A stretch of DNA of 64,000 nucleotides, taken from contig OZ243938.1 of assembly GCA_965214095.1 (NCBI GenBank), forward strand, positions 1,632,001 to 1,696,000, read 5' to 3'. Positions 38,992-51,644 of this stretch are shown here, one piece after another. The position numbers and the translations under genes are program-made. The notes below the pieces were generated by a model. It saw only the letters and a program-made list of their open reading frames with translations, did no database searches and was not told where the DNA came from. The DNA comes from Candidatus Poribacteria bacterium. GTDB lineage: Bacteria; Poribacteria; WGA-4E; WGA-3G. Each line of letters begins with the position of its first letter. The stretch's first letter is position 1.

Positions 38992-39637
38992 ATTGGAATG
39001 TAAGAGGCGCGTGAATTACAAGCCTACTTCGTAAAATGGTATTGGATGACCATTTAGAACGGCAAACGGATTTGATTTGTATACTGTTTTATTCGTTCAT
39101 GTGCCAGTTTGATGTATTCTTCTGCAATATCGTATCCGACGTAGTGTCTATCGGATTTTGCGGCACTCAAACAGGTTGTCCCACTGCCACAAAATGGATC
39201 TAAAACGACATCGCTTTTGAAGGTGTATAACTGAATTAAACGGTGCGGAAGTTCTTCAGGAAACGGTGCGGGATGCCCTATACGTTTGGCAGATACAGAT
39301 GGAAATGTCCACACGCTTTTTGTCCACTCTAAGAAATCCTCTTTAGTAATGGAATTTTCCTTGTCGTTACGTTGTCGTGAAAAGGAGTCTTTTGAGAATA
39401 CGAGAATATATTCATGGACATCTCTGAGGACAGGATTTGCGGCAGATAGCCAACTCCCCCATGCCGTTGAACTACCCGCAGATGCAGCTTTGTCCCAGAT
39501 GATTTCTCCACGCATATAGTAACCTATTTCCAACATATCTTCTATGATGTGACTATGCAGCGGGATATACGGTTTACGTCCTAAATTCGCGATATTAATG
39601 CATGCCCTTCCACCTGTCACCAACTTCTTGTAGGTTT

Positions 39638-40637
39638 GAACTCATAGCGAGTAACATCTAAGCATCGTTGAAAGTTGCTCGAAAATTTATCATTGAATAT
39701 GCTAAATTACGAAAACCTAAACGTGTTTCTTTGAGTTTATCATAACTTAGAACGAGTCTTCGGTAAGTATCTTGCCACCCGAAAGTTCGCTCTACTTTAT
39801 ACCGGTCTTTGTATATATCTTTTCTAAACCACCGGAACTTGCGAGCGATAGCGATAGGTTCTTTAGTGTTTCGTTTGTTAGGGTAGATCACTGGGATCAG
39901 TCCTTGTTCTTTAATAATCTTATGATTCACCTTGGAATCAAAACCAGAATCCAGCGTTAGCGCGGAACCATCAAGTGCCATGCCAATCCGATTGCTGAAG
40001 GAGATGAGTTCGGTCAATGCCTCGGGCAAAATCGTTGTATCATGTTGGTTCACTGGTTTGAGGGTTATTGGACCAATGATAAAACCTTTATTGTCGGTGA
40101 TAGCCACCTCTTTTTCACCTTTTTGATGTTTATGACCTGAATACCCTATGGTGTCACCCCTTTTTTTACAACAGTGTTTGAACCATCACCATGTAAACAA
40201 GAGGTGTCAAGTTGATCACTATCATGAAGATGTATGACAGATGCTTCAAAAAGTTTCTCATAAGAACCATCTTTTGACCAACGATTATGCCATTTATAGA
40301 CGTTAGACCAATGGAGTTCATTACGCCGTGTGCGGAGTTGATCCCATTGAATACCGGTATGTAAAACATAGAGGATATAGTTGAATATCTTATAGAAAGA
40401 CAGTTTCGGTTTGGGACCTTTTATGCGTTTCTTTAGATGAGGTTTGATATAACGATTAAAATCCTTACGTGAAACCTGCTTCGGAATACCATTGTATCTG
40501 AGGGGCTCTTGAACCTTGTCTGCCATAACAACACCTTTCAATAAGTTATAGATATATGAAGTGAAAGAATAGGACATAAATAAACTCTTGTGTTTCCCTA
40601 TTATATAGCATTATTATGTTTTACTCAATATGAGTTC
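39638..40637 (-). mobile_element. IS5-family insertion sequence, 1000 bp
   Basis: 17-bp imperfect TIRs (GAACTCATAGCGAGTAA / GAACTCATATTGAGTAA); 3-bp TTT target duplication; two-ORF transposase. Confidence 0.92.
39658..40526 (-). CDS. IS5-family DDE transposase, probably expressed by -1 frameshift
   Basis: OrfA ILYVLHTGIQW..HGDGS; slippery A7G4 at 40157-40167; OrfB LDSGFDS..RYKVERTFGW..RRL. Confidence 0.85.
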
Positions 40638-40974
40638 TTTCAGCAAATACGTTACGTAAGAGTTCTCTATACTCGTCTAATGACAGGTCATCGTCGTATT
40701 CCTTTTTGGCGTTATATGGAGGCGATGTCACCATAAGATGAATGCTGCCATCAGGAATCTCTGACATTTTCTCGCTTGAAGCACAATAGAGTTGGTCAAG
40801 GTTTTCAGGTGGTATAGGGTTTTCTATCCACGTTTCGGGTTCAGGTGGTGCTTGGTTTGCGTAGAGTTTTCCCTTGTAGAATTCAGTGGAGTCGTGGTTG
40901 ATCCTTCCGGTAGTTCCGAAAGTACTTGTTTTTGTGCCTTGTTCCTGTGATTCTATATTTGGTTTATGCATAAT

Positions 40975-43253: not shown

Positions 43254-43680
43254 ATAGGCTTCCTTTGATGATTTATTTGATGTTGTTCGTATTTTAATCA
43301 AAATCAGTTTTGTTGTCAATCTATAGTCTATTCATAATCCATTGCAGTCAGTGCCAAAACATTACACACCCTCAATTAGTTTTTATTTGCATAAAATCAG
43401 CAATTTGTAGTATAATAATTGATAATTATCAAAATAATTACTGAAATTGTTCTATTTGAAATCTAATTTGACTTGACAACGTTTTTACATTAGTATAAAC
43501 TAAATTGTTAAGTATACAACCACGTTTGAGCGATTCGCCTTAATACATATAGCGACAACAAATATTTGTTAATGTGTCCATAGATTTCCGGTGAACCCTC
43601 TCCTCAAACAAGAAATTTGATTAATACCGAAAGGTAGAGAAAACGTCACAAAAAGTAAATGAATTAGTAAGGAGTGTTTT

Positions 43681-46029
43681 ATGAATAATCAGCTTTTGAA
43701 CAGGAAATTGTTATTTTCCTTGATGGCTGTAATAATGTGTTTGGGATTCACAGCACTGAGTTACGGTGCAGCCACCGTATCTGTTGATCCCGCTACTGTT
43801 GAGTCTCCCGCTGTCGGTGAACAACTCACTATAAATATTAATATTGCTGGTGGTGCTGGTGTGGGCGGTTTCCAAGCAACCGTCAATTATGACAATACTG
43901 CGCTTAGTTATGTTTCCGCTGCAAAAGGAGCTTATATTCCTGGAGATATACTTGCAGGAACATTTTTCCCAGTTATACGACCAGGTGATTCTCTTGTCGT
44001 CATTGGTGGAACGTCTGTTGGTGCAGGAACTGCAGATGGTGATGGAACGCTTGCTACGGTAACCTTTGAGGTGCTTGAGGTAAAAGCGTCATCTATCACT
44101 CTGTCAGACGTTATCGTTTCTGATGCTGCTGGAGCGAACTTAGAAGCCACAACTGCAGACGGCGCGGTTACTGTACCTACTCCAGAAGAGGAAACCACTG
44201 AAGAAACTACAGAGGAAACCACTGAAGAGACTACAGAAGAAACCACTGAAGAAACTACAGAAGAAACCACTGAAGAAACTACAGAGGAAACCACTGAAGA
44301 AACTACTACAGAGGAAACCACTGAAGAGACTACAGAGGAAACCACTGAAGAGACTACAGAGGAAACCACTGAAGAAACTACAGAGGAAACCACTGAAGAA
44401 ACTACAGAGGAAACCGTTGTAGCAGAACCTGTTATCCCCGATCCACAAGTGTTCGCTATTACCCTCACCAACCTAACAGAAGGTGAACCGGGAATGGGTG
44501 GACAGATCTTCTCACCTCCAATCTTTGCAGCACATCCTGCTGCTAAACTCTTTGAAGTTGGTATGCCCGCGTCCCCAGCACTTGTCCTGCTCGCTGAAGG
44601 TGGAGACACCTCAGGCCTTGCCGCACTCGCAGCAGCTGTTGGAGCAACTCCTGTCATGGGAGAAGGTATGGTTCTACCCGGTGCATCCGTTACCGTTATG
44701 GTTTCAGCAGATGCGATGAACTCTGCACTTTCACTCGCAACAATGTTGGTCTCAACAAATGATGCATTTATTGGAACTACTGACTTAGCCTTGTATGATG
44801 AAATGGGAATGCCTATTAACACAACATTATATCTAAGGTCTTACGATGCTGGTAGTGAACAGAATACGGAACGTGGTACAGATATTCCTGGTCCAGTTGG
44901 TCTGCCTGCAGATGAAGACCCGATGGGGTCTAATGCACGTGTTCCCACTGAAGGTGGCGTAATCACACCGCACCCTGGAATCCAAGGTGTAGGTGATGTC
45001 TTACCATCATTTGCATGGGAAGAACCCACAGCGATGGTTACAATTGCACCTTATGTGCCAGAACCACCACCAGAACCACCACCCGTATTGCCTACTTATG
45101 ATGTCAAACTCGCAGCGGGACTAAACATGATCTCTGTTCCGTTGATGCCGACAGAACCCTACACAGCAAAATCTCTTGCAGAAATGTTAGGTTCAACGGT
45201 TGTCATCAGGTTAGATGCCTATTCACAGACTTTTGATGGTTATGTCGTTGTTGATGATGATGATGGCTTCGCAATAGAAGGTGGCAAAGGTTATATCGTC
45301 AATACACCGGCAGGTGGAACGGTAACATTTAGTGGTAATGCATGGTCTAATGAACCGGCAGATATGCCGATGCATGAAGGCACAATGGATGAAGCCGCTG
45401 CTGCACCTAAGATTACTACTTCAAGTGCTTGGGCATTTATCGTTACAAGTAACTTGCAGGAGAAAGTAAGTGGTGCTACCTACACAATGGTTGGCAAAAA
45501 CCTCCGCACTGGTGTAGTTTCAACCAAAACAGTTACCAGTGAAGATGGATATGTTTCGGCTGTTTGGGCAGATCTGAGCGAGAAGAGCGTCGTGCAAGCT
45601 GGAGATAAAATTGAGATCTCTGTTCTTGACGAAGATGGCACTGTTGTGTCCGGTCCGTTTGAACGCACAGTCCAAAGCACAGATATTCACAACGCATATA
45701 TGGATGTGGAAATGCGTGTTGGCGATGTACGTCCAAAAGATAGTATTCTTGGACAGAACTTCCCCAATCCGTTCAATCCTGAAACTTGGATTCCATATCA
45801 GTTGAGCAGTGATTCCAATGTTATGATTACGATCTATGATGTTTCTGGTCATACAGTTCGTGAATTAAACTTGGGTCATAAGTCAACGGGTTCGTATATG
45901 ACGAATTCATCAGCGGCCTATTGGGATGGTAAGAATGAAACGGGTGAACATGTTTCGAGCGGTATCTATTTCTATTCGCTCCAAACAGCGACTTTCTCCG
46001 CGACCCGTCGCATGGTCATACTCAAGTAG
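43681..46029 (+). CDS. Secreted cohesin + EETT linker + Spondin_N + FlgD-Ig/T9SS-like C-terminal domain protein
   Basis: Signal peptide; cohesin (GFQATVNYDNTAL..GDGTLATVTFEV); spondin (QIFSPPIFAAH..LAEGGD..TNDAF..YDAGSE); NFPNPFNPETWIPY..WDG..SGIYFY. Confidence 0.85.
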   Translation: MNNQLLNRKLLFSLMAVIMCLGFTALSYGAATVSVDPATVESPAVGEQLTININIAGGAGVGGFQATVNYDNTALSYVSAAKGAYIPGDILAGTFFPVIRPGDSLVVIGGTSVGAGTADGDGTLATVTFEVLEVKASSITLSDVIVSDAAGANLEATTADGAVTVPTPEEETTEETTEETTEETTEETTEETTEETTEETTEETTEETTTEETTEETTEETTEETTEETTEETTEETTEETTEETVVAEPVIPDPQVFAITLTNLTEGEPGMGGQIFSPPIFAAHPAAKLFEVGMPASPALVLLAEGGDTSGLAALAAAVGATPVMGEGMVLPGASVTVMVSADAMNSALSLATMLVSTNDAFIGTTDLALYDEMGMPINTTLYLRSYDAGSEQNTERGTDIPGPVGLPADEDPMGSNARVPTEGGVITPHPGIQGVGDVLPSFAWEEPTAMVTIAPYVPEPPPEPPPVLPTYDVKLAAGLNMISVPLMPTEPYTAKSLAEMLGSTVVIRLDAYSQTFDGYVVVDDDDGFAIEGGKGYIVNTPAGGTVTFSGNAWSNEPADMPMHEGTMDEAAAAPKITTSSAWAFIVTSNLQEKVSGATYTMVGKNLRTGVVSTKTVTSEDGYVSAVWADLSEKSVVQAGDKIEISVLDEDGTVVSGPFERTVQSTDIHNAYMDVEMRVGDVRPKDSILGQNFPNPFNPETWIPYQLSSDSNVMITIYDVSGHTVRELNLGHKSTGSYMTNSSAAYWDGKNETGEHVSSGIYFYSLQTATFSATRRMVILK
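44185..44415 (+). repeat. Coding tandem repeat, (EETT)n acidic/Thr linker
   Basis: About 18 EETT units made of alternating GARGAAACCACT / GAAGARACTACA 12-mers. Confidence 0.95.
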
Positions 46030-46053
46030 ATTTCATAACTAAAACTGAATAAC

Positions 46054-46126
46054 AAAAAACGCCCCGACTGCCGGTTTTCCGACCGCGAATCAATTTGATT
46101 AGCGTCGGCGGCGGGGGCGTTTTTTC
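46054..46126. terminator. Long GC-rich intergenic hairpin with A- and T-tracts
   Basis: AAAAAACGCCCC...GGGGCGTTTTTT with nested internal stems. Confidence 0.7.
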
Positions 46127-46149
46127 ATGTTATTATGAGGGAGGTACTT

Positions 46150-49100
46150 TTGAATAAACGAAACAAGACATTTTTTCTTTGTAGCATGCTTGTACTCTTG
46201 TGTGTAGCAAGCAGTAGTAGTGTATTTGCCTTTTCTTCTAATCCACCAGATGAACTGACTGGTGCTCCAAATGAAGGGAACTGTACGCAATGTCATACAG
46301 GTAATGACTTGAATGTTGTGGGTGGGTCATTGATGTTAACAGTGCCTGGTGTCTATACTCCCGGCATGGAATACGATATTGTTGTTGAATTAGCACGTGC
46401 AGGACAGAGTCGGTGGGGATTTCAGATTACCGCGCAGGATAGCAAAAATGTGCGCGCAGGTACCTTCGCCACTTCGGATACAAATACTCGATTAGAAAAA
46501 GCGAACAGTAAACAATATATTGAACATACATCCGTAGGAACTGCTGCAGGTACAAGAAACTCAAACAGTTGGACATTTAAATGGACTGCTCCATCCAATG
46601 ATGTTGGACCGATTACGTTTTATGCAGCTGGGAATGCAGCGAATAATGCTAATGGTGCTTTGGGTGATTATATCTATACACAGAGAGCAACATCAGATTC
46701 CATTGCTTATGGCGTTTCATTAGCTGGCGTTGGTTCATTGAATAAAACTGTAAATACGGGGATAGAGACAAGATATACTCTCACAGTAAAGAACACTGGT
46801 AATTCAAGAGATACAATAAGTTTGTCTACTTCTGGAATTGCTTCAGCAAGTTTAAACCAGTCATCTGTTACACTTGACGCGGAAACTTCTGCCAACGTGA
46901 CTTTGACAATTCCCGGTTCAGCCTTAACGAGTGCAGGAGAATATAAGGCTACGGTCACTGCCTCGTCACAAGGGGATAGTTCAAAATCTGCTGAAGTTAT
47001 AACTACTACAACTATTCTTCCTGCATACAGTGTTAGTTTAGCAGGCGAAGGTAGCTTAACAAGGCAGACAACAGATGCAAGTAATGGTGTGCGTTATACG
47101 GTCAAAGTCACCAACGATGGCAATACAACTGACACGATACGTTTATCTACTTCAGGTGATGCTTCAGCAACAATAAGTCCGAGTCCTGTCACACTTAGTG
47201 CAGGTGCTTCAAGAAACCTATCATTGACAGTTTCTGACAGTAAACTCGTACAAGCGGGTGAATACAAAGTAAAAGTTACAGCTACATCGCAAAATGACAG
47301 TTCAAAAACTGCTGAAATTACTACCACTACAACTATTTTGCCTGTCTACGATATTGCGATTGAAGGTGTCGATGAACTGACGACTGAAACTGCAGATGCA
47401 AGTGACGGTGTAAGTTATGCACTCAAAATAACTAACAACGGAAATACGGATGATGTAATTGATTTAGCAACATCCGGCACTGCAGCCACGTTAAGTCAAG
47501 AGTCTGTTTCGCTTACATCAGGTGCTTCAGCAGAAGTAATGTTGACGATTTCAGGTGATGTGCTTGCTTTAGCAGATACATATCAAGTCAAGGTTACTGC
47601 TACTTCGCAAGGGGATGATACCCAAACCGTTGAAATCACAACGACTACGACTATCCTGCCTGTCTACGACATATCATTAGAAGGTGTCGGTGAACTGACA
47701 ACTGAAACTGCAGATGCAAGTGATGGTGTAAGTTATACGTTGAAAGTTACAAACAACGGAAATACGGAGGATACGATTGATTTGACAATATCCGGCACTG
47801 CAGCAATGTTAAGTCAAGAGTCTGTTTCGCTTGCATCGGGTGCTTCAGCAGATGTGATGTTGACGATTTCTGGTGATGTGCTTGCTTTGGCAGATAGTTA
47901 TGAAGTCAAGGTCACTGCTACTTCACAAGGTGATGCTACAAATACTGCTGAAATCACAACGACGACGACTATTTTGCCTGTCTTTGACATATCATTAGAA
48001 GGTGTCGGTGACTTGACAACTGAAACTACAGACGCAAGTGACGGTGTGAGTTATACGCTGAAAGTCACAAACAATGGAAATACGAATGATACGATTGACT
48101 TAGCAACATCAGGCACTGCAGCAACATTGAGTCAAGCGTCTGTTTCGCTTGCGTCAGGTGCTTCCACAGAAGTAATGTTGACGATTTCGGGTGATGTGCT
48201 TGCCTTAGCAGATACATATCAAGTCAAGGTTACTGCTACTTCGCAAGGTGATGATACCCAAACCGTTGAAATCATAACGACAACGACTGTTCTCCCCGTA
48301 TACGGCGTGACTTTAACAAGTGATACACTCACTGGTGCAACAACGGAAGCGAATATAGGTGTAACTTATACACTCACAGTAACAAATACCGGTAATACTA
48401 ATGATACGATAGTTCTCGGTTCCTCCGCTGAAGTAGGAATCACCGGTGCTGTTCTGGGTTCGTTCAACCTGCCTAACTCTGAAGAACCTGACATGGCTCA
48501 ACTGGAAATAATGCTTGCTGCAGGGGAATCCGCAGAGGTAGCGTTTATTGCTTCTGGTGATTTGTTGACACAGCCCGGTGAATATGAAATTGTGGTTACA
48601 GCGACTTCACAAGGAGATACTACGAAGTCTGCTCAACTTACCACAACAACCACGATAACTGCTGTTCCACCGGAATACGGTGTCATGTTGCAGGGTAAAG
48701 ACGAACTCACAGGTGAGACAATGGACATCTTAACAGGTGTCACTTATACACTTATCGTTACAAATACGGGTAACACCGATGACACAATTGTTCTCAGTTC
48801 TTCAGTAGAGGTCGGAATTGAAGGTAACGTTCTCGGTTCGTTCAGCCAATCTGACGATCAAGAAATGTCCACAGCTCAGTTGCAACTTACACTTGCTGCT
48901 GGCGAAACTGTAGAAGTAGAATTCACTGCTTCTGGTGATTTCTTCACGAAGCCGGGTGAATATGAGATAATGGTTACCGCAACTTCACAAGGCGATACTA
49001 CGAAAATTGCTGAAGTTACGACCACAACTACGATTGAACCTGTGCCGTGGGATCTGAATGCTGATGGCACGGTGAATATCTTGGATCTGGTCGCGGTTGC

Positions 49101-49239
49101 TAACCAATTCGGTGAAACAGGTGAAGGACTTTCTGGTGATGTGAATATGGATGGCACGGTGAATATCTTGGATTTAGTTGCGGTTGCTAACCAATTCGGA
49201 AAATCACAAGCAGAGATTGTCCAAGCAGCTAACCAATAG
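46150..49239 (+). CDS. Secreted Reeler (choice-of-anchor V-like, CxxCH) + about 7 Ig-like repeats + C-terminal dockerin protein
   Basis: Signal peptide; TGAPNEGNCTQCH, WGFQITA, WTFKWTAP..ITFYAAGNAAN; about 106-aa repeats (Y.L.V.N.GN..D..Y.V.VTATSQGD); duplicated DxNxDGxVNILDLV. TTG start follows GGAGG (ORF track starts at 46135). Confidence 0.85.
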   Translation: MNKRNKTFFLCSMLVLLCVASSSSVFAFSSNPPDELTGAPNEGNCTQCHTGNDLNVVGGSLMLTVPGVYTPGMEYDIVVELARAGQSRWGFQITAQDSKNVRAGTFATSDTNTRLEKANSKQYIEHTSVGTAAGTRNSNSWTFKWTAPSNDVGPITFYAAGNAANNANGALGDYIYTQRATSDSIAYGVSLAGVGSLNKTVNTGIETRYTLTVKNTGNSRDTISLSTSGIASASLNQSSVTLDAETSANVTLTIPGSALTSAGEYKATVTASSQGDSSKSAEVITTTTILPAYSVSLAGEGSLTRQTTDASNGVRYTVKVTNDGNTTDTIRLSTSGDASATISPSPVTLSAGASRNLSLTVSDSKLVQAGEYKVKVTATSQNDSSKTAEITTTTTILPVYDIAIEGVDELTTETADASDGVSYALKITNNGNTDDVIDLATSGTAATLSQESVSLTSGASAEVMLTISGDVLALADTYQVKVTATSQGDDTQTVEITTTTTILPVYDISLEGVGELTTETADASDGVSYTLKVTNNGNTEDTIDLTISGTAAMLSQESVSLASGASADVMLTISGDVLALADSYEVKVTATSQGDATNTAEITTTTTILPVFDISLEGVGDLTTETTDASDGVSYTLKVTNNGNTNDTIDLATSGTAATLSQASVSLASGASTEVMLTISGDVLALADTYQVKVTATSQGDDTQTVEIITTTTVLPVYGVTLTSDTLTGATTEANIGVTYTLTVTNTGNTNDTIVLGSSAEVGITGAVLGSFNLPNSEEPDMAQLEIMLAAGESAEVAFIASGDLLTQPGEYEIVVTATSQGDTTKSAQLTTTTTITAVPPEYGVMLQGKDELTGETMDILTGVTYTLIVTNTGNTDDTIVLSSSVEVGIEGNVLGSFSQSDDQEMSTAQLQLTLAAGETVEVEFTASGDFFTKPGEYEIMVTATSQGDTTKIAEVTTTTTIEPVPWDLNADGTVNILDLVAVANQFGETGEGLSGDVNMDGTVNILDLVAVANQFGKSQAEIVQAANQ
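47338..48291 (+). repeat. Three highly similar 318-bp coding repeats (Ig-like modules)
   Basis: LPV[YF]DI.[IL]EGV..LTTET.DASDGVSY.LK begins at 47338, 47656 and 47974. Confidence 0.85.
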
Positions 49240-49305
49240 TTGTAATTTAGTAATTATCCGATGGGCGCGCATTCTTTTGCGTGCCCATACCTTATGGAGA
49301 TGAAT

Positions 49306-50373
49306 ATGGCATCAAAATATCGGGTCGGTATTATCGGATGTGGTGGAATTGCCAACGCACATGCCCGAGGATATGAAGGCGTTGAGCAAACTGAAATCGT
49401 CGCCCTTGCAGACCCTATTCAGGCTGCACTTGATAGGTTTTCAGACACCTACGGCGTTTCAAAGGAACACTGTTATTTAGACCCACGAGATATGCTGGAT
49501 AACGAAAATCTTGATATTGTCAGTATTGCGACTTGGCACAAACTTCACGCACCGATGACAATCGCAGCGTGTGCACGAGCACCAAAGGCTGTCCTCTGTG
49601 AAAAACCGATGGGTGTTAATCTGGGTGAGTGCGATGAAATGTTGATTGCTGCAAACCGAAACAGTGTCAAACTTGTTATAGGCCACCAACGTCGGTTTAA
49701 TTCCGCATGGACAGATGCACGCAATCTCATCGCTGAAGGGGCAATCGGTGAACCCCGACAGATCGTCTGCCACGGCGGACAAGGATTGTTAAATGATTGC
49801 TCACATCTCTTTGACATGATGCGATATGTCCTCGGTGATCCTGCTCCTCAATGGGTCATCGGTAACGTTGAACGCAAAACGGAACGATATGAACGGGATA
49901 TTCAGATTGAAGATCGAAGTGCGGGTATCGTCGGATTTGCGAACGGATGTATCGGTATGCTAACGCAGGAAATTGGTAGACCAAATTATCAAGGTGGGAT
50001 TGTCTACGGAACTGACGGAATAGCAGATGTGACAGAGGGACGCGTGCGTCTACTCAACAATAAGGCTACAGATTGGGAAGAACGTCCTTCTGATGGAACA
50101 AACCAGCACATTGCACAAGCACAAGAATTAGTTGAATGGATTGAAGATGGAGCGGAACACCGTGGCGAAGCAAAACATGGACGTGCTGCTGTTGAGATTA
50201 TAATGGCGATATACGAATCAGCACGTATGCACGAAGTGGTACAACTGCCGTTACGCACCCATGCAAACCCGCTTGATTTAATGATTGAAAGCGGTGATTT
50301 ACCCATTGAACGTCCGGGTAGATATGACATACGAGCGTTTTTGCTACGCGGCGAATCCATGAAACCTGAATAA
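49306..50373 (+). CDS. Gfo/Idh/MocA-family oxidoreductase
   Basis: VGIIGCGGIA, LCEKPM, GHQRRF; ATG at 49306 follows GGAG. Confidence 0.92.
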   Translation: MASKYRVGIIGCGGIANAHARGYEGVEQTEIVALADPIQAALDRFSDTYGVSKEHCYLDPRDMLDNENLDIVSIATWHKLHAPMTIAACARAPKAVLCEKPMGVNLGECDEMLIAANRNSVKLVIGHQRRFNSAWTDARNLIAEGAIGEPRQIVCHGGQGLLNDCSHLFDMMRYVLGDPAPQWVIGNVERKTERYERDIQIEDRSAGIVGFANGCIGMLTQEIGRPNYQGGIVYGTDGIADVTEGRVRLLNNKATDWEERPSDGTNQHIAQAQELVEWIEDGAEHRGEAKHGRAAVEIIMAIYESARMHEVVQLPLRTHANPLDLMIESGDLPIERPGRYDIRAFLLRGESMKPE

Positions 50374-50402
50374 TTTCCGCCTATAAATGCAAATTTAATA
50401 CC

Positions 50403-51644
50403 ATGCAGATAACACAAGGCGTTAGTGTCGGATTAGCAGCACTCAGTCGTAACAAATTACGTTCTGTCCTCACAACGTTGGGAATAATCATCGGTATTGC
50501 AGCAGTCGTTGCAGTCGTTTCTGTGGGTGGTGGCGCAGAACACCTTGTCCTCATAGAAATGGAACGGATAGGTGGAGCGGGGATGATCGTCTGCTTCCGA
50601 AAAGACCATATTCGCAGAGATGATGGTTCGTATATTCAAAACAAACATCCAGAATATATTGAATACAACGACCTTGCTTTCATACTTGAAACGTGTCCAT
50701 CCATAAAAACTGCAACAGCACAATCCGGGATGCATCTCCGTGTATCACACAGATACAACAATCGCTCACTACAGGTTCACGGTGTTACCCCTTCCTTTCA
50801 AGAAGTCAACAACTGGTACGCTGAAAGAGGTAGGTTCTTTACTGAAAACGACATGGAACTGCGAGACACTATCTGTGTGATTGGATCTGAAGTCCAAAAA
50901 GAACTATTTGATATGTCGGATCCGATAGGACAAGAATTAAGAGTTGGATCAGGACGATTCACCGTTATTGGTGTCATGGAGGAAAAAGGCAATAATATGG
51001 CAACTGAGGGATGGGATAATCGTGTGATTATACCCCTCACGACTATGAAAACCCGTTTTGTTGGTGATAGAAAAGGATGGCTTATATTATTTGCACAGGC
51101 GATTAGTTATGAAAAAGTTGAACAAGCAATCGCTGAAATCAAAATCGCCTTCAGACAACAACACGGTGATGAGAAATACTTCGATTTTTTCTCTGCAAAG
51201 CAAGTAATAGAACAAGTAGGGAATGTTAGTCGTATAATTCAGGTTCTTCTCGGTGCAGTTGCCAGTATCGCTCTATTTGTCGGTGGGATCGGCATTATGA
51301 ATATTATGCTGGTGTCGGTTACGGAGAGAACACGTGAAATCGGTTTACGGAAAGCCATCGGTGCAAGACGCACAGATATTCTTATTCAATTCTTGATTGA
51401 GGCGGTCGTCCTAAGCATCTGTGGTGGGTTGATAGGTATTTTTATTGGGAGTGGACTTGCAACAGGTTCAGGGTGGGTCATCTCTAAATTTGTGATTAAA
51501 GATGCGGCTTGGCCTGCAGTCGTGTCTATTCAGGCAGCGTTGATTGCGTTTGGTGTTTCAGCTTTCATCGGTGTGTTTTTTGGTATCTATCCAGCAAACA
51601 AAGCCGCAGGTCTCATGCCAACTGAAGCATTGCGTCATGATTAA
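50403..51644 (+). CDS. MacB/FtsX-type ABC transporter permease
   Basis: NKLRSVLTTLGIIIG, GGIGIMNIMLVSVTERTREIGLRKAIGA, YPANKAA. Confidence 0.93.
   Translation: MQITQGVSVGLAALSRNKLRSVLTTLGIIIGIAAVVAVVSVGGGAEHLVLIEMERIGGAGMIVCFRKDHIRRDDGSYIQNKHPEYIEYNDLAFILETCPSIKTATAQSGMHLRVSHRYNNRSLQVHGVTPSFQEVNNWYAERGRFFTENDMELRDTICVIGSEVQKELFDMSDPIGQELRVGSGRFTVIGVMEEKGNNMATEGWDNRVIIPLTTMKTRFVGDRKGWLILFAQAISYEKVEQAIAEIKIAFRQQHGDEKYFDFFSAKQVIEQVGNVSRIIQVLLGAVASIALFVGGIGIMNIMLVSVTERTREIGLRKAIGARRTDILIQFLIEAVVLSICGGLIGIFIGSGLATGSGWVISKFVIKDAAWPAVVSIQAALIAFGVSAFIGVFFGIYPANKAAGLMPTEALRHD

Follow-up and report, generated by a model that had tools for sequence, protein, structure and literature searches.

Can a bacterium build from two genes the counterpart of a matrix protein that animals make as a single chain? 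The question arises from two neighbouring genes, A and B, in a 64,000-nucleotide window (G000:C1:1632001-1696000) of the 5.2-Mb assembly of a Candidatus Poribacteria bacterium. An earlier reading of the window, made without database searches (the sequence-only reading), had proposed a split F-spondin: the cohesin of A would capture the dockerin of B and bring together in trans the spondin and Reeler domains that animal F-spondin holds in one polypeptide. We find that A and B are a real, conserved pair, specific to Poribacteria among the genomes searched and built of known types of module. The reading we favour is that B docks on A at the cell surface and that the choice-of-anchor V (ChV) domain at the tip of B is a haem or redox module. 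This joint claim draws on sequence and predicted structure, and we put its probability at roughly 0.45. The genes and their parts, numbered from the first base of the window, lie as follows.

43681..46029, + strand: gene A, 782 residues, with signal peptide, cohesin, (EETT)n linker, spondin domain, middle region and C-terminal sorting domain of the type IX secretion system (T9SS)
43783..44175, + strand: cohesin of A, residues 35-165 (PF00963)
44187..44415, + strand: acidic Thr-rich (EETT)n linker of A, a 12/24-nt tandem repeat in the DNA
44449..45045, + strand: spondin (FS-like) domain of A, residues 257-455 (NF038123)
45058..45750, + strand: middle region of A, about residues 460-690, beta-rich in the model
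45760..46020, + strand: T9SS type A sorting domain of A, residues 694-780 (TIGR04183)
46135..49239, + strand: gene B, 1034 residues, with signal peptide, ChV (Reeler-like / cytochrome f-like) domain, immunoglobulin (Ig)-like stalk and C-terminal dockerin
46231..46686, + strand: ChV domain of B, F33 (the predicted mature N-terminus) to residue 184
46282..46296, + strand: C50-T-Q-C53-H54 motif of B, a putative covalent haem c attachment site marked by conservation
46702..49029, + strand: Ig-like stalk of B, about 7 repeats of FixG_C / choice-of-anchor T type, from profile matches
49051..49194, + strand: type I dockerin of B, residues 973-1020 at the extreme C-terminus (PF00404, Dockerin_1)

Hidden Markov models (HMMs) and predicted folds agree on all the domains that the sequence-only reading had named in A and B. 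It had described two adjacent, co-oriented secreted proteins, and its open reading frame (ORF) coordinates are exact: the genes share a strand, 105 nt separate them, and each begins with a Sec-type signal peptide, read by eye from the translations. The cohesin of A matches PF00963 at E 1.3e-13 (51.8 bits, cut-off 24.1), its spondin domain the NCBIfam model NF038123 at E 2.7e-37 (128.9 bits, cut-off 40), and its tail TIGR04183 at 34.2 bits (cut-off 23), with a FlgD_ig match as well. In B, the NCBIfam ChV model NF041895 covers residues 23-184 at E 5.3e-31 (107.7 bits, cut-off 42; model positions 2-148 of 150), Pfam Reeler matches residues 72-164 (26.4 bits, cut-off 21), and the dockerin scores E 5.3e-8 (33.4 bits, cut-off 22.9) with two near-identical Ca-binding repeats. 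Of the HMMs by which the sequence-only reading was to be checked, those for cohesin, dockerin, Reeler, ChV and NCBIfam spondin score above their cut-offs, and Pfam Spond_N reaches 22.3 bits on A, just under its cut-off of 24.

Among A orthologues the linker region differs in length, and the proteins run from 724 to 1191 residues; the middle region occurs in all of them, four from other families included, and matches no Pfam or NCBIfam profile. B frames, taken from stop to stop, range from 367 to 2991 residues across orthologues (L035-L143) through gain and loss of Ig repeats, and the three central stalk repeats of B itself are 318-nt tandem copies at 47306-48288. The dockerin is the more constant end of B: both of its D-x-N-x-D-G..D Ca loops are invariant in 37 sequences, and among genus orthologues it is 74-94% identical, against 58-77% for the ChV domain. 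No glycoside hydrolase or carbohydrate-binding module family matches A or B at E <= 1 in Pfam or NCBIfam, which supports the non-cellulolytic setting that the sequence-only reading had inferred: neither protein looks cellulosomal. The thrombospondin type 1 repeat model TSP_1 gives no match in either protein. Many species carry a short B form of about 370-520 residues with one Ig domain. The A orthologues of some species hold Ig repeats between cohesin and spondin that are 57-66% identical to B stalk repeats (L039:3753-6542, L048:8375-10789, L049:3871-6324; also L070, L081, L087 and L125), which suggests module exchange between the two genes.

A and B travel together within Poribacteria. Their adjacency is unlikely to be a chance event, because the genome has exactly one spondin match and exactly one ChV match and the two are neighbours. 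Within the genus, 22 of 24 other genomes have the spondin family and 22 of 24 the ChV family. In all 23 genus loci fetched, A, in the order cohesin, spondin, middle region and tail, lies directly 5' of a co-oriented B. A terminal dockerin closes B in 20 of the 23, and contig ends cut the remaining three. We then surveyed the best 80 contig loci, 78 of them from Poribacteria records. Twelve had less than 3 kb upstream, leaving 68, and A stands 5' of B in 63 of these 68, with a gap below 400 nt in 59 of the 63; the 80 loci overlap the genus set and are kin, and so are not independent counts. The genes 5' of A are conserved in only 2 of the 80. Nine genus genomes have a second spondin-domain gene elsewhere, without an adjoining ChV gene (G002:C31:250228-250830, G003:C1:5374178-5374780 and seven more).

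The linkage that the sequence-only reading had proposed to test is borne out within Poribacteria and was not seen in the other phyla sampled. Among 39 non-poribacterial genomes with a ChV gene, four have a spondin match and none has a spondin gene adjacent to the ChV gene. No spondin domain lies within about 5-6 kb of any of 58 non-poribacterial ChV loci, and no ChV domain within 8 kb of any of 80 spondin loci. Purpose-built spondin HMMs found no ChV-spondin fusion in 264 ChV-family proteins. Spond_N is not among the best 25 of 47 Pfam families tallied in 64 long ChV members, a tally that a rare match could escape, and it is absent from the at least 120 longer ChV-profile proteins listed, whose named sources are poribacterial and whose Pfam content is the B-like ChV-Ig(-dockerin). 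Ten matches of a broad ChV HMM in the spondin loci were rejected; all fell at profile positions 200-288, the sorting tail, and not in the ChV part at 30-195. Our literature search, which covered sources other than subscription journals and supplements, returned no report joining Poribacteria and spondin and nothing relevant on Poribacteria cohesin-dockerin or on bacterial spondin with PEP-CTERM.

Both domains are ordinary bacterial families. In 1.84 billion proteins the ChV profile picks out 7500 cluster representatives with E <= 1e-3, of which 799 reach E <= 1e-30. Loci of the family belong to Ignavibacteria, Gemmatimonadota, Eisenbacteria, Zixibacteria, Acidobacteriota, Planctomycetota and Calditrichota, among others, and the ESM Atlas clusters that lie closest to the ChV domain consist of bacterial proteins annotated 'Reeler domain-containing'. 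The spondin domain has loci in Chloroflexota, Bacteroidota, Gemmatimonadota, Latescibacteria, Myxococcota and haloarchaea. Because both families are so widespread in bacteria, they are by their sequences not recent animal imports. The scores do not support a recent transfer from animals either: both domains do far better on the bacterial NCBIfam models than on the Pfam models named like the animal domains. A phmmer search of PDB sequences with the spondin domain of A gave no animal spondin chain at E <= 10, and two non-poribacterial spondin domains likewise gave none. Membership of large bacterial families makes 'split F-spondin' an analogy, by this evidence, and not a demonstrated split or a host mimic. 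The absence of fusions among the 264 ChV-family proteins, the lack of linkage in the non-poribacterial genomes and loci surveyed, the reversed order of the domains and the missing thrombospondin type 1 repeats (TSRs) all tell against a split, and the notion of a bacterial F-spondin should be toned down to a lineage-specific juxtaposition of two bacterial domain families. Several bacterial spondin-domain genes carry two spondin domains in tandem, and the haloarchaeal ones (within L228-L307) include genes from Haloarcula and a Halobacteriaceae archaeon (L276, L304, L306).

Why, then, would the two proteins belong together? A genome census of cohesin and dockerin matches points to complementary parts. 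The matches fall in 53 open frames, which we sorted with the T9SS sorting-tail profile.

Cohesin, dockerin and tail: 11 frames
Cohesin and dockerin, no tail: 5 frames
Dockerin and tail: 19 frames
Dockerin only, B included: 14 frames
Cohesin only, apparently pieces of neighbouring cohesin-dockerin genes: 3 frames
Cohesin and tail, no dockerin: 1 frame, which is A

This leaves A as the one candidate for a pure anchor in the genome, with B as one of 14 possible clients that have no tail of their own, in agreement with the complementarity that the sequence-only reading had inferred for the two proteins. In two genomes from another family of the order, G033 and G039, neither with a spondin match, ChV domain, dockerin and sorting tail occur in one chain; by comparison, this form would fit a B that obtains its tail in trans. 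That B docks on A is plausible because A is the sole free anchor, because the genes adjoin and because a tail-bearing ChV form exists elsewhere. A complex prediction of the A cohesin with the B dockerin and two Ca scored 0.18 against a mark of 0.32, was run without controls and speaks neither for nor against binding. In the 16 frames that carry both modules, a cohesin is followed by a dockerin about 120-150 residues on, and 11 of the 16 also have the T9SS tail; such a tandem cassette could form chains or self-assemble.

For docking, surface location, haem attachment and function (redox chemistry or ligand binding at the surface) we infer the following course. A and B would belong to the lineage's large non-cellulosomal proteome of cohesin-dockerin and T9SS-tail surface proteins. 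A divergent T9SS would export A through its C-terminal sorting domain and hold it at the cell surface, where A would present its spondin (C2-like) domain together with a free N-terminal cohesin on a long acidic Thr-rich linker. B, which has a signal peptide and no sorting tail, would reach the surface or stay there by placing its Ca-dependent dockerin in a cohesin, and the best candidate for that cohesin is A's. Docked by its C-terminus, B would hold its N-terminal ChV domain at the tip of an Ig stalk of variable length. That tip is predicted to be a beta-sandwich related to the animal Reeler domain and to the large domain of cytochrome f, most likely with a covalent haem c on its C-x2/4-C-H motif, and, as happens in cytochrome f, signal peptidase would create a new N-terminus near the haem. 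A redox or haem module would then stand beside a spondin domain, in a complex that would be no copy of F-spondin.

The haem proposal starts from the fold of the ChV domain. An AlphaFold2 model of B residues 31-200, built on a 57-sequence alignment, reached a predicted local distance difference test (pLDDT) score of 88.6. Foldseek placed the F-spondin reeler entries 2zot, 2zou and 3coo at the top of the PDB (E 2e-7). A Foldseek-independent search of 48,161 representative chains placed cytochrome f first (2jxm_B, Z 11.6, 145 residues aligned; 4ogq_C, Z 11.5), with reeler 3coo_A after it (Z 10.2, 109 aligned). When 997 Foldseek candidates were re-scored, the first 16 rows belonged to F-spondin reeler and cytochrome f alone. 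The three reeler entries, 2zot, 2zou and 3coo, took between them Z values of 12.3, 12.0 and 11.7, with 121-127 residues aligned, and the 13 entries for cytochrome f had Z 10.7-12.1, root-mean-square deviation 3.0-3.8 and 141-151 residues aligned; the next row had Z 9.8. The cytochrome f alignments run over model residues 2 to 160-170, on chain residues 1 to 246-261, and take in the N-terminal segment; the reeler alignments begin at model residue 8-15 and leave it out. For A 252-782, modelled with moderate confidence (pLDDT 72), the top PDB matches are mindin FS 3d34 (E 3.4e-8, TMt 0.69) and F-spondin FS 3q13. Residues 75-154 of the A spondin domain also show a weak sequence match (E 0.17-0.22) to 'archaeal bundling protein X' (9sj2, 9rhp), probably by chance.

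The ChV domain also carries a conserved motif. B and 25 relatives all have C50, C53 and H54 (26/26), and the three residues are likewise invariant in 57 of 57 poribacterial sequences, spaced as C-x2-CH in 30 and C-x4-CH in 27. Across 141 diverse family representatives, 136 have a C-x2-4-CH motif (spacing 2 in 107, 3 in 7 and 4 in 22) and five have none. In the family consensus, ...A | F/Y-S-x-G-P-P..T-G-A-P.E..C, the predicted mature protein starts with an aromatic residue, 17 residues ahead of the first Cys, and what precedes that residue reads as a signal-peptidase-type site. Cytochrome f binds haem through a CxxCH about 20 residues from its mature N-terminus, and the sixth ligand is the alpha-amino group of its aromatic first residue. 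PDB entry 1ctm bears a title in line with this, 'novel cytochrome fold and unexpected heme ligation'. New here is the candidate C-x2/4-C-H motif placed, as in cytochrome f, 17 residues past an aromatic mature N-terminus. From motif and predicted fold together, the ChV domain is a probable c-type haem module.

Genomic context fits this assignment. The genome has three PF01578 matches for cytochrome c assembly genes, and 4 of 64 longer ChV-family members are fused to GSDH dehydrogenases of the pyrroloquinoline quinone (PQQ) type. Near the 58 non-poribacterial ChV loci (L144-L219), DUF1501 genes occur in 11 and a weak planctomycete-cytochrome-like ORF in five; these loci are often multi-copy, with 110 ChV-cluster ORFs among them. 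The Reeler label of the sequence-only reading was in this respect incomplete: it missed both the invariant CxxCH-type motif and a likeness to cytochrome f as close as that to reeler. Within the same scope as before, the literature search returned nothing relevant on bacterial Reeler and heme, on reeler and cytochrome f, or on choice-of-anchor. The most interesting by-product, as far as models carry it, is a structural bridge from the bacterial ChV ('Reeler') family to F-spondin reeler and cytochrome f, coupled to a near-universal haem-attachment motif.

Several observations weigh against the reading we favour, and those that bear on docking suit the main rival, an account we regard as possible, if less likely: that A and B are independent members of a promiscuous cohesin-dockerin network whose adjacency is inherited gene order, with B docking on any cohesin-dockerin protein and the A cohesin taking any tail-less dockerin protein. 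The genome holds 23 cohesin and 51 dockerin matches, with the 14 tail-less dockerin proteins among the possible clients. The A cohesin is 26-50% identical to 20 paralogues over alignments of at least 110 residues and the B dockerin up to 61-67% identical to its own; neither is an outlier or an obvious private type, and the comparison of paralogues is uninformative as to partners. Downstream of B, 68 of the 80 loci keep a gene for a cytoplasmic Gfo/Idh/MocA oxidoreductase (86-97% identity) and 69 keep one for a MacB/FtsX permease (65-96%); because the block includes these functionally unrelated genes, conserved adjacency alone does not imply function. Each gene also occurs without the other and keeps its module: five poribacterial loci have B with its dockerin and no upstream A, four of the five genomes concerned showing no spondin match anywhere (their completeness is not established), and in two other families, four genomes without a ChV match have A-like genes that retain the cohesin. 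Export raises further difficulties. The genome has 64 matches to the T9SS sorting tail, A among them, and a divergent T9SS is plausible from its sequence, but its PorU-like genes score 284, 261 and 252 bits under a curated cut-off of 420, its several PorV-like genes also stay below theirs (97.5 bits against 250), and its SprA-like gene lies in five colinear pieces, the best at 67.9 bits against 200; a tail-less B would, besides, still have to cross the outer membrane. What speaks against a promiscuous network is that the sole spondin and sole ChV gene of a 5.2-Mb genome adjoin, that A-B is conserved while the genes 5' of A are not (2/80), that A is the single cohesin-tail protein without a dockerin, and that the tail-bearing ChV-dockerin form of another family suggests that B needs a tail from elsewhere.

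Other alternatives concern what the docked ChV domain does. B may dock on A without haem, its ChV domain being a plain Reeler-like binding module whose Cys-x-x-Cys-His is a disulfide and/or metal site, in a complex that acts as an adhesin for host matrix or other cells. We hold this to be unlikely, though a disulfide or metal site could explain the C..CH motif equally well, reeler and cytochrome f are tied in Z, no apocytochrome f family matches B in Pfam at E <= 1, and no cytochrome f chain appears among PDB sequence profile matches of the ChV domain at E <= 1. The Reeler match above its Pfam cut-off, the reeler of F-spondin as top Foldseek match and top Z in the re-scoring, and the variable Cys spacing of 2-4 residues all suit it, as does a family that consists mostly of surface proteins with sorting tails, FG-GAP, cadherin-like and Ig domains (64 longer members). 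So does a neighbouring fold match, YcnI (Z 9.2-9.4), whose entries are copper-bound and apo; YcnI uses N-terminal ligation. Counting against it, a C..CH with His right after the second Cys is the c-type haem signature and occurs in 136 of 141 diverse members, the cytochrome f alignment takes in the N-terminal segment (model 2-160) where the reeler alignment runs from 8/15 to 160, the aromatic residue at the predicted mature N-terminus is conserved, and the family includes GSDH fusions. We find very improbable the proposal of the sequence-only reading that A and B rebuild animal F-spondin in trans, here taken to mean host mimicry in which the complex attaches to sponge matrix or immune receptors in the manner of F-spondin or mindin. 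The coincidence of domain types is still striking: the best PDB matches of the two proteins are the two domain types that F-spondin fuses, the organism is a poribacterium, and no genome examined outside Poribacteria has the pair. Yet both domains sit in large bacterial families, score much higher on bacterial models than on the Pfam models named after animal domains and lack sequence matches to animal spondin chains; TSR repeats are missing, the gene order is reversed, and a stalk as variable as the B frames (367-2991 residues) is at odds with a fixed Reeler-spondin geometry. To our knowledge, a CxxCH motif is not a feature of animal Reeler domains. A wider joint reading strikes us as improbable too: that ChV is a very large undescribed class of secreted c-type cytochromes linking cytochrome f and animal Reeler, carried in Poribacteria on an Ig stalk docked to a T9SS-anchored spondin protein, and that the recurrence of Reeler with spondin in symbiont and F-spondin marks an old functional partnership, in redox or metal handling at the cell surface, and not coincidence.

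Known systems resemble the proposed complex in parts. Among the closest are non-cellulosomal cohesin-dockerin systems, for example the Archaeoglobus fulgidus cohesin 2xdh and the Clostridium perfringens glycoside-hydrolase cohesins 2jh2, 2vo8 and 2w1n. As in these and in cellulosomal anchoring scaffoldins, A-B would combine a predicted surface-anchored cohesin with a C-terminal type I dockerin of duplicated Ca loops on the partner. The pair differs in having no carbohydrate-active enzyme. The anchor of A is a T9SS sorting tail and not an S-layer homology domain or sortase signal, and most cohesins of this genome have a dockerin straight after them within one chain. A shares with T9SS type A cargo its Por_Secre_tail / FlgD-Ig-like C-terminal sorting domain; it differs from usual cargo in that Poribacteria lie outside Bacteroidota and their PorU-, PorV- and SprA-like genes fall below cut-offs.

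F-spondin (SPON1) and mindin supply the best solved matches through their Reeler-like and FS folds, for B and A respectively. A-B differs from F-spondin in having two polypeptides, with spondin before the Reeler-like domain and no TSRs, in that both domains are of bacterial type, and in the CxxCH motif and cytochrome f-like N-terminal segment of B. With the large domain of cytochrome f (1ctm, 1q90, 2jxm, 4ogq) the predicted ChV domain shares a beta-sandwich of the same topology, a CxxCH about 17-20 residues from the mature N-terminus and an aromatic first residue. It differs in having no detectable sequence similarity to cytochrome f and none of its small domain, membrane anchor or b6f context; its haem is putative, and it caps the stalk of a secreted protein. 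By their scores, B and A clearly belong to the NCBIfam ChV and spondin families, set apart from members in other phyla by the dockerin and Ig-stalk form beside a cohesin-spondin gene, which occurs only in the Poribacteria among the genomes searched.

Cohesin-dockerin assembly is textbook material for cellulosomes; in this uncultivated sponge symbiont it seems to structure a surface proteome of T9SS type. With one free anchoring cohesin beside its most likely client, the locus offers a testable entry point to how Poribacteria build their surface. Thousands of bacterial proteins have a domain annotated 'Reeler' that bears a haem-attachment signature and an N-terminal segment like that of cytochrome f; were haem binding true, a large family would move from 'adhesin-like, unknown' to 'secreted cytochrome' and give a hint to the origin of the animal Reeler domain. 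The Reeler domain also occurs in the ferric reductase FRRS1.

Features around the pair are these.

43473..43501, + strand: promoter-like site TTGACA-17-TAAACT, a 10/12 consensus match only, about 180 nt 5' of A
49261..51644, + strand: downstream Gfo/Idh/MocA oxidoreductase (without signal peptide) and MacB/FtsX-type permease, in the same conserved synteny block and not counted in the complex

Our scan gave 16 promoter-like sites (12.2 ± 3.6 in shuffles) and three terminator-like sites (4.4 ± 2.5 in shuffles), no excess of either, and no terminator-like site between A and B or directly 3' of B. RNA-library contigs from two studies span A at 44401-45735 with about 97% identity and include short pieces of B, which fits transcription of a close relative's genes; the evidence consists of contigs only, the uncovered parts of B are uninformative, and carry-over of DNA is possible. 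The Gfo/Idh/MocA gene (49261-50373, 22 nt 3' of B) is far more constrained than the ChV domain in the same block, at 86-97% identity across poribacterial loci where that domain has only about 50-77%.

Elsewhere on the contig, the SprA-like gene (2570263-2574252, + strand) adjoins giant frames with two to three cohesins and a dockerin (2561873-2569311, - strand; G000:C1), and a similar trio of multi-cohesin frames lies at 4309745-4322341 of G000:C1. Upstream of A in the window, an N6_N4_Mtase DNA methyltransferase gene (39054-40971, - strand) is apparently split by an IS4/IS5-family insertion element: the piece at 40621-40971 matches profile positions 1-38, that at 39054-39623 positions 46-220, and the gap between the pieces is taken up by two ORFs for transposases (DUF4096, DDE_Tnp_1) at 39658-40577.

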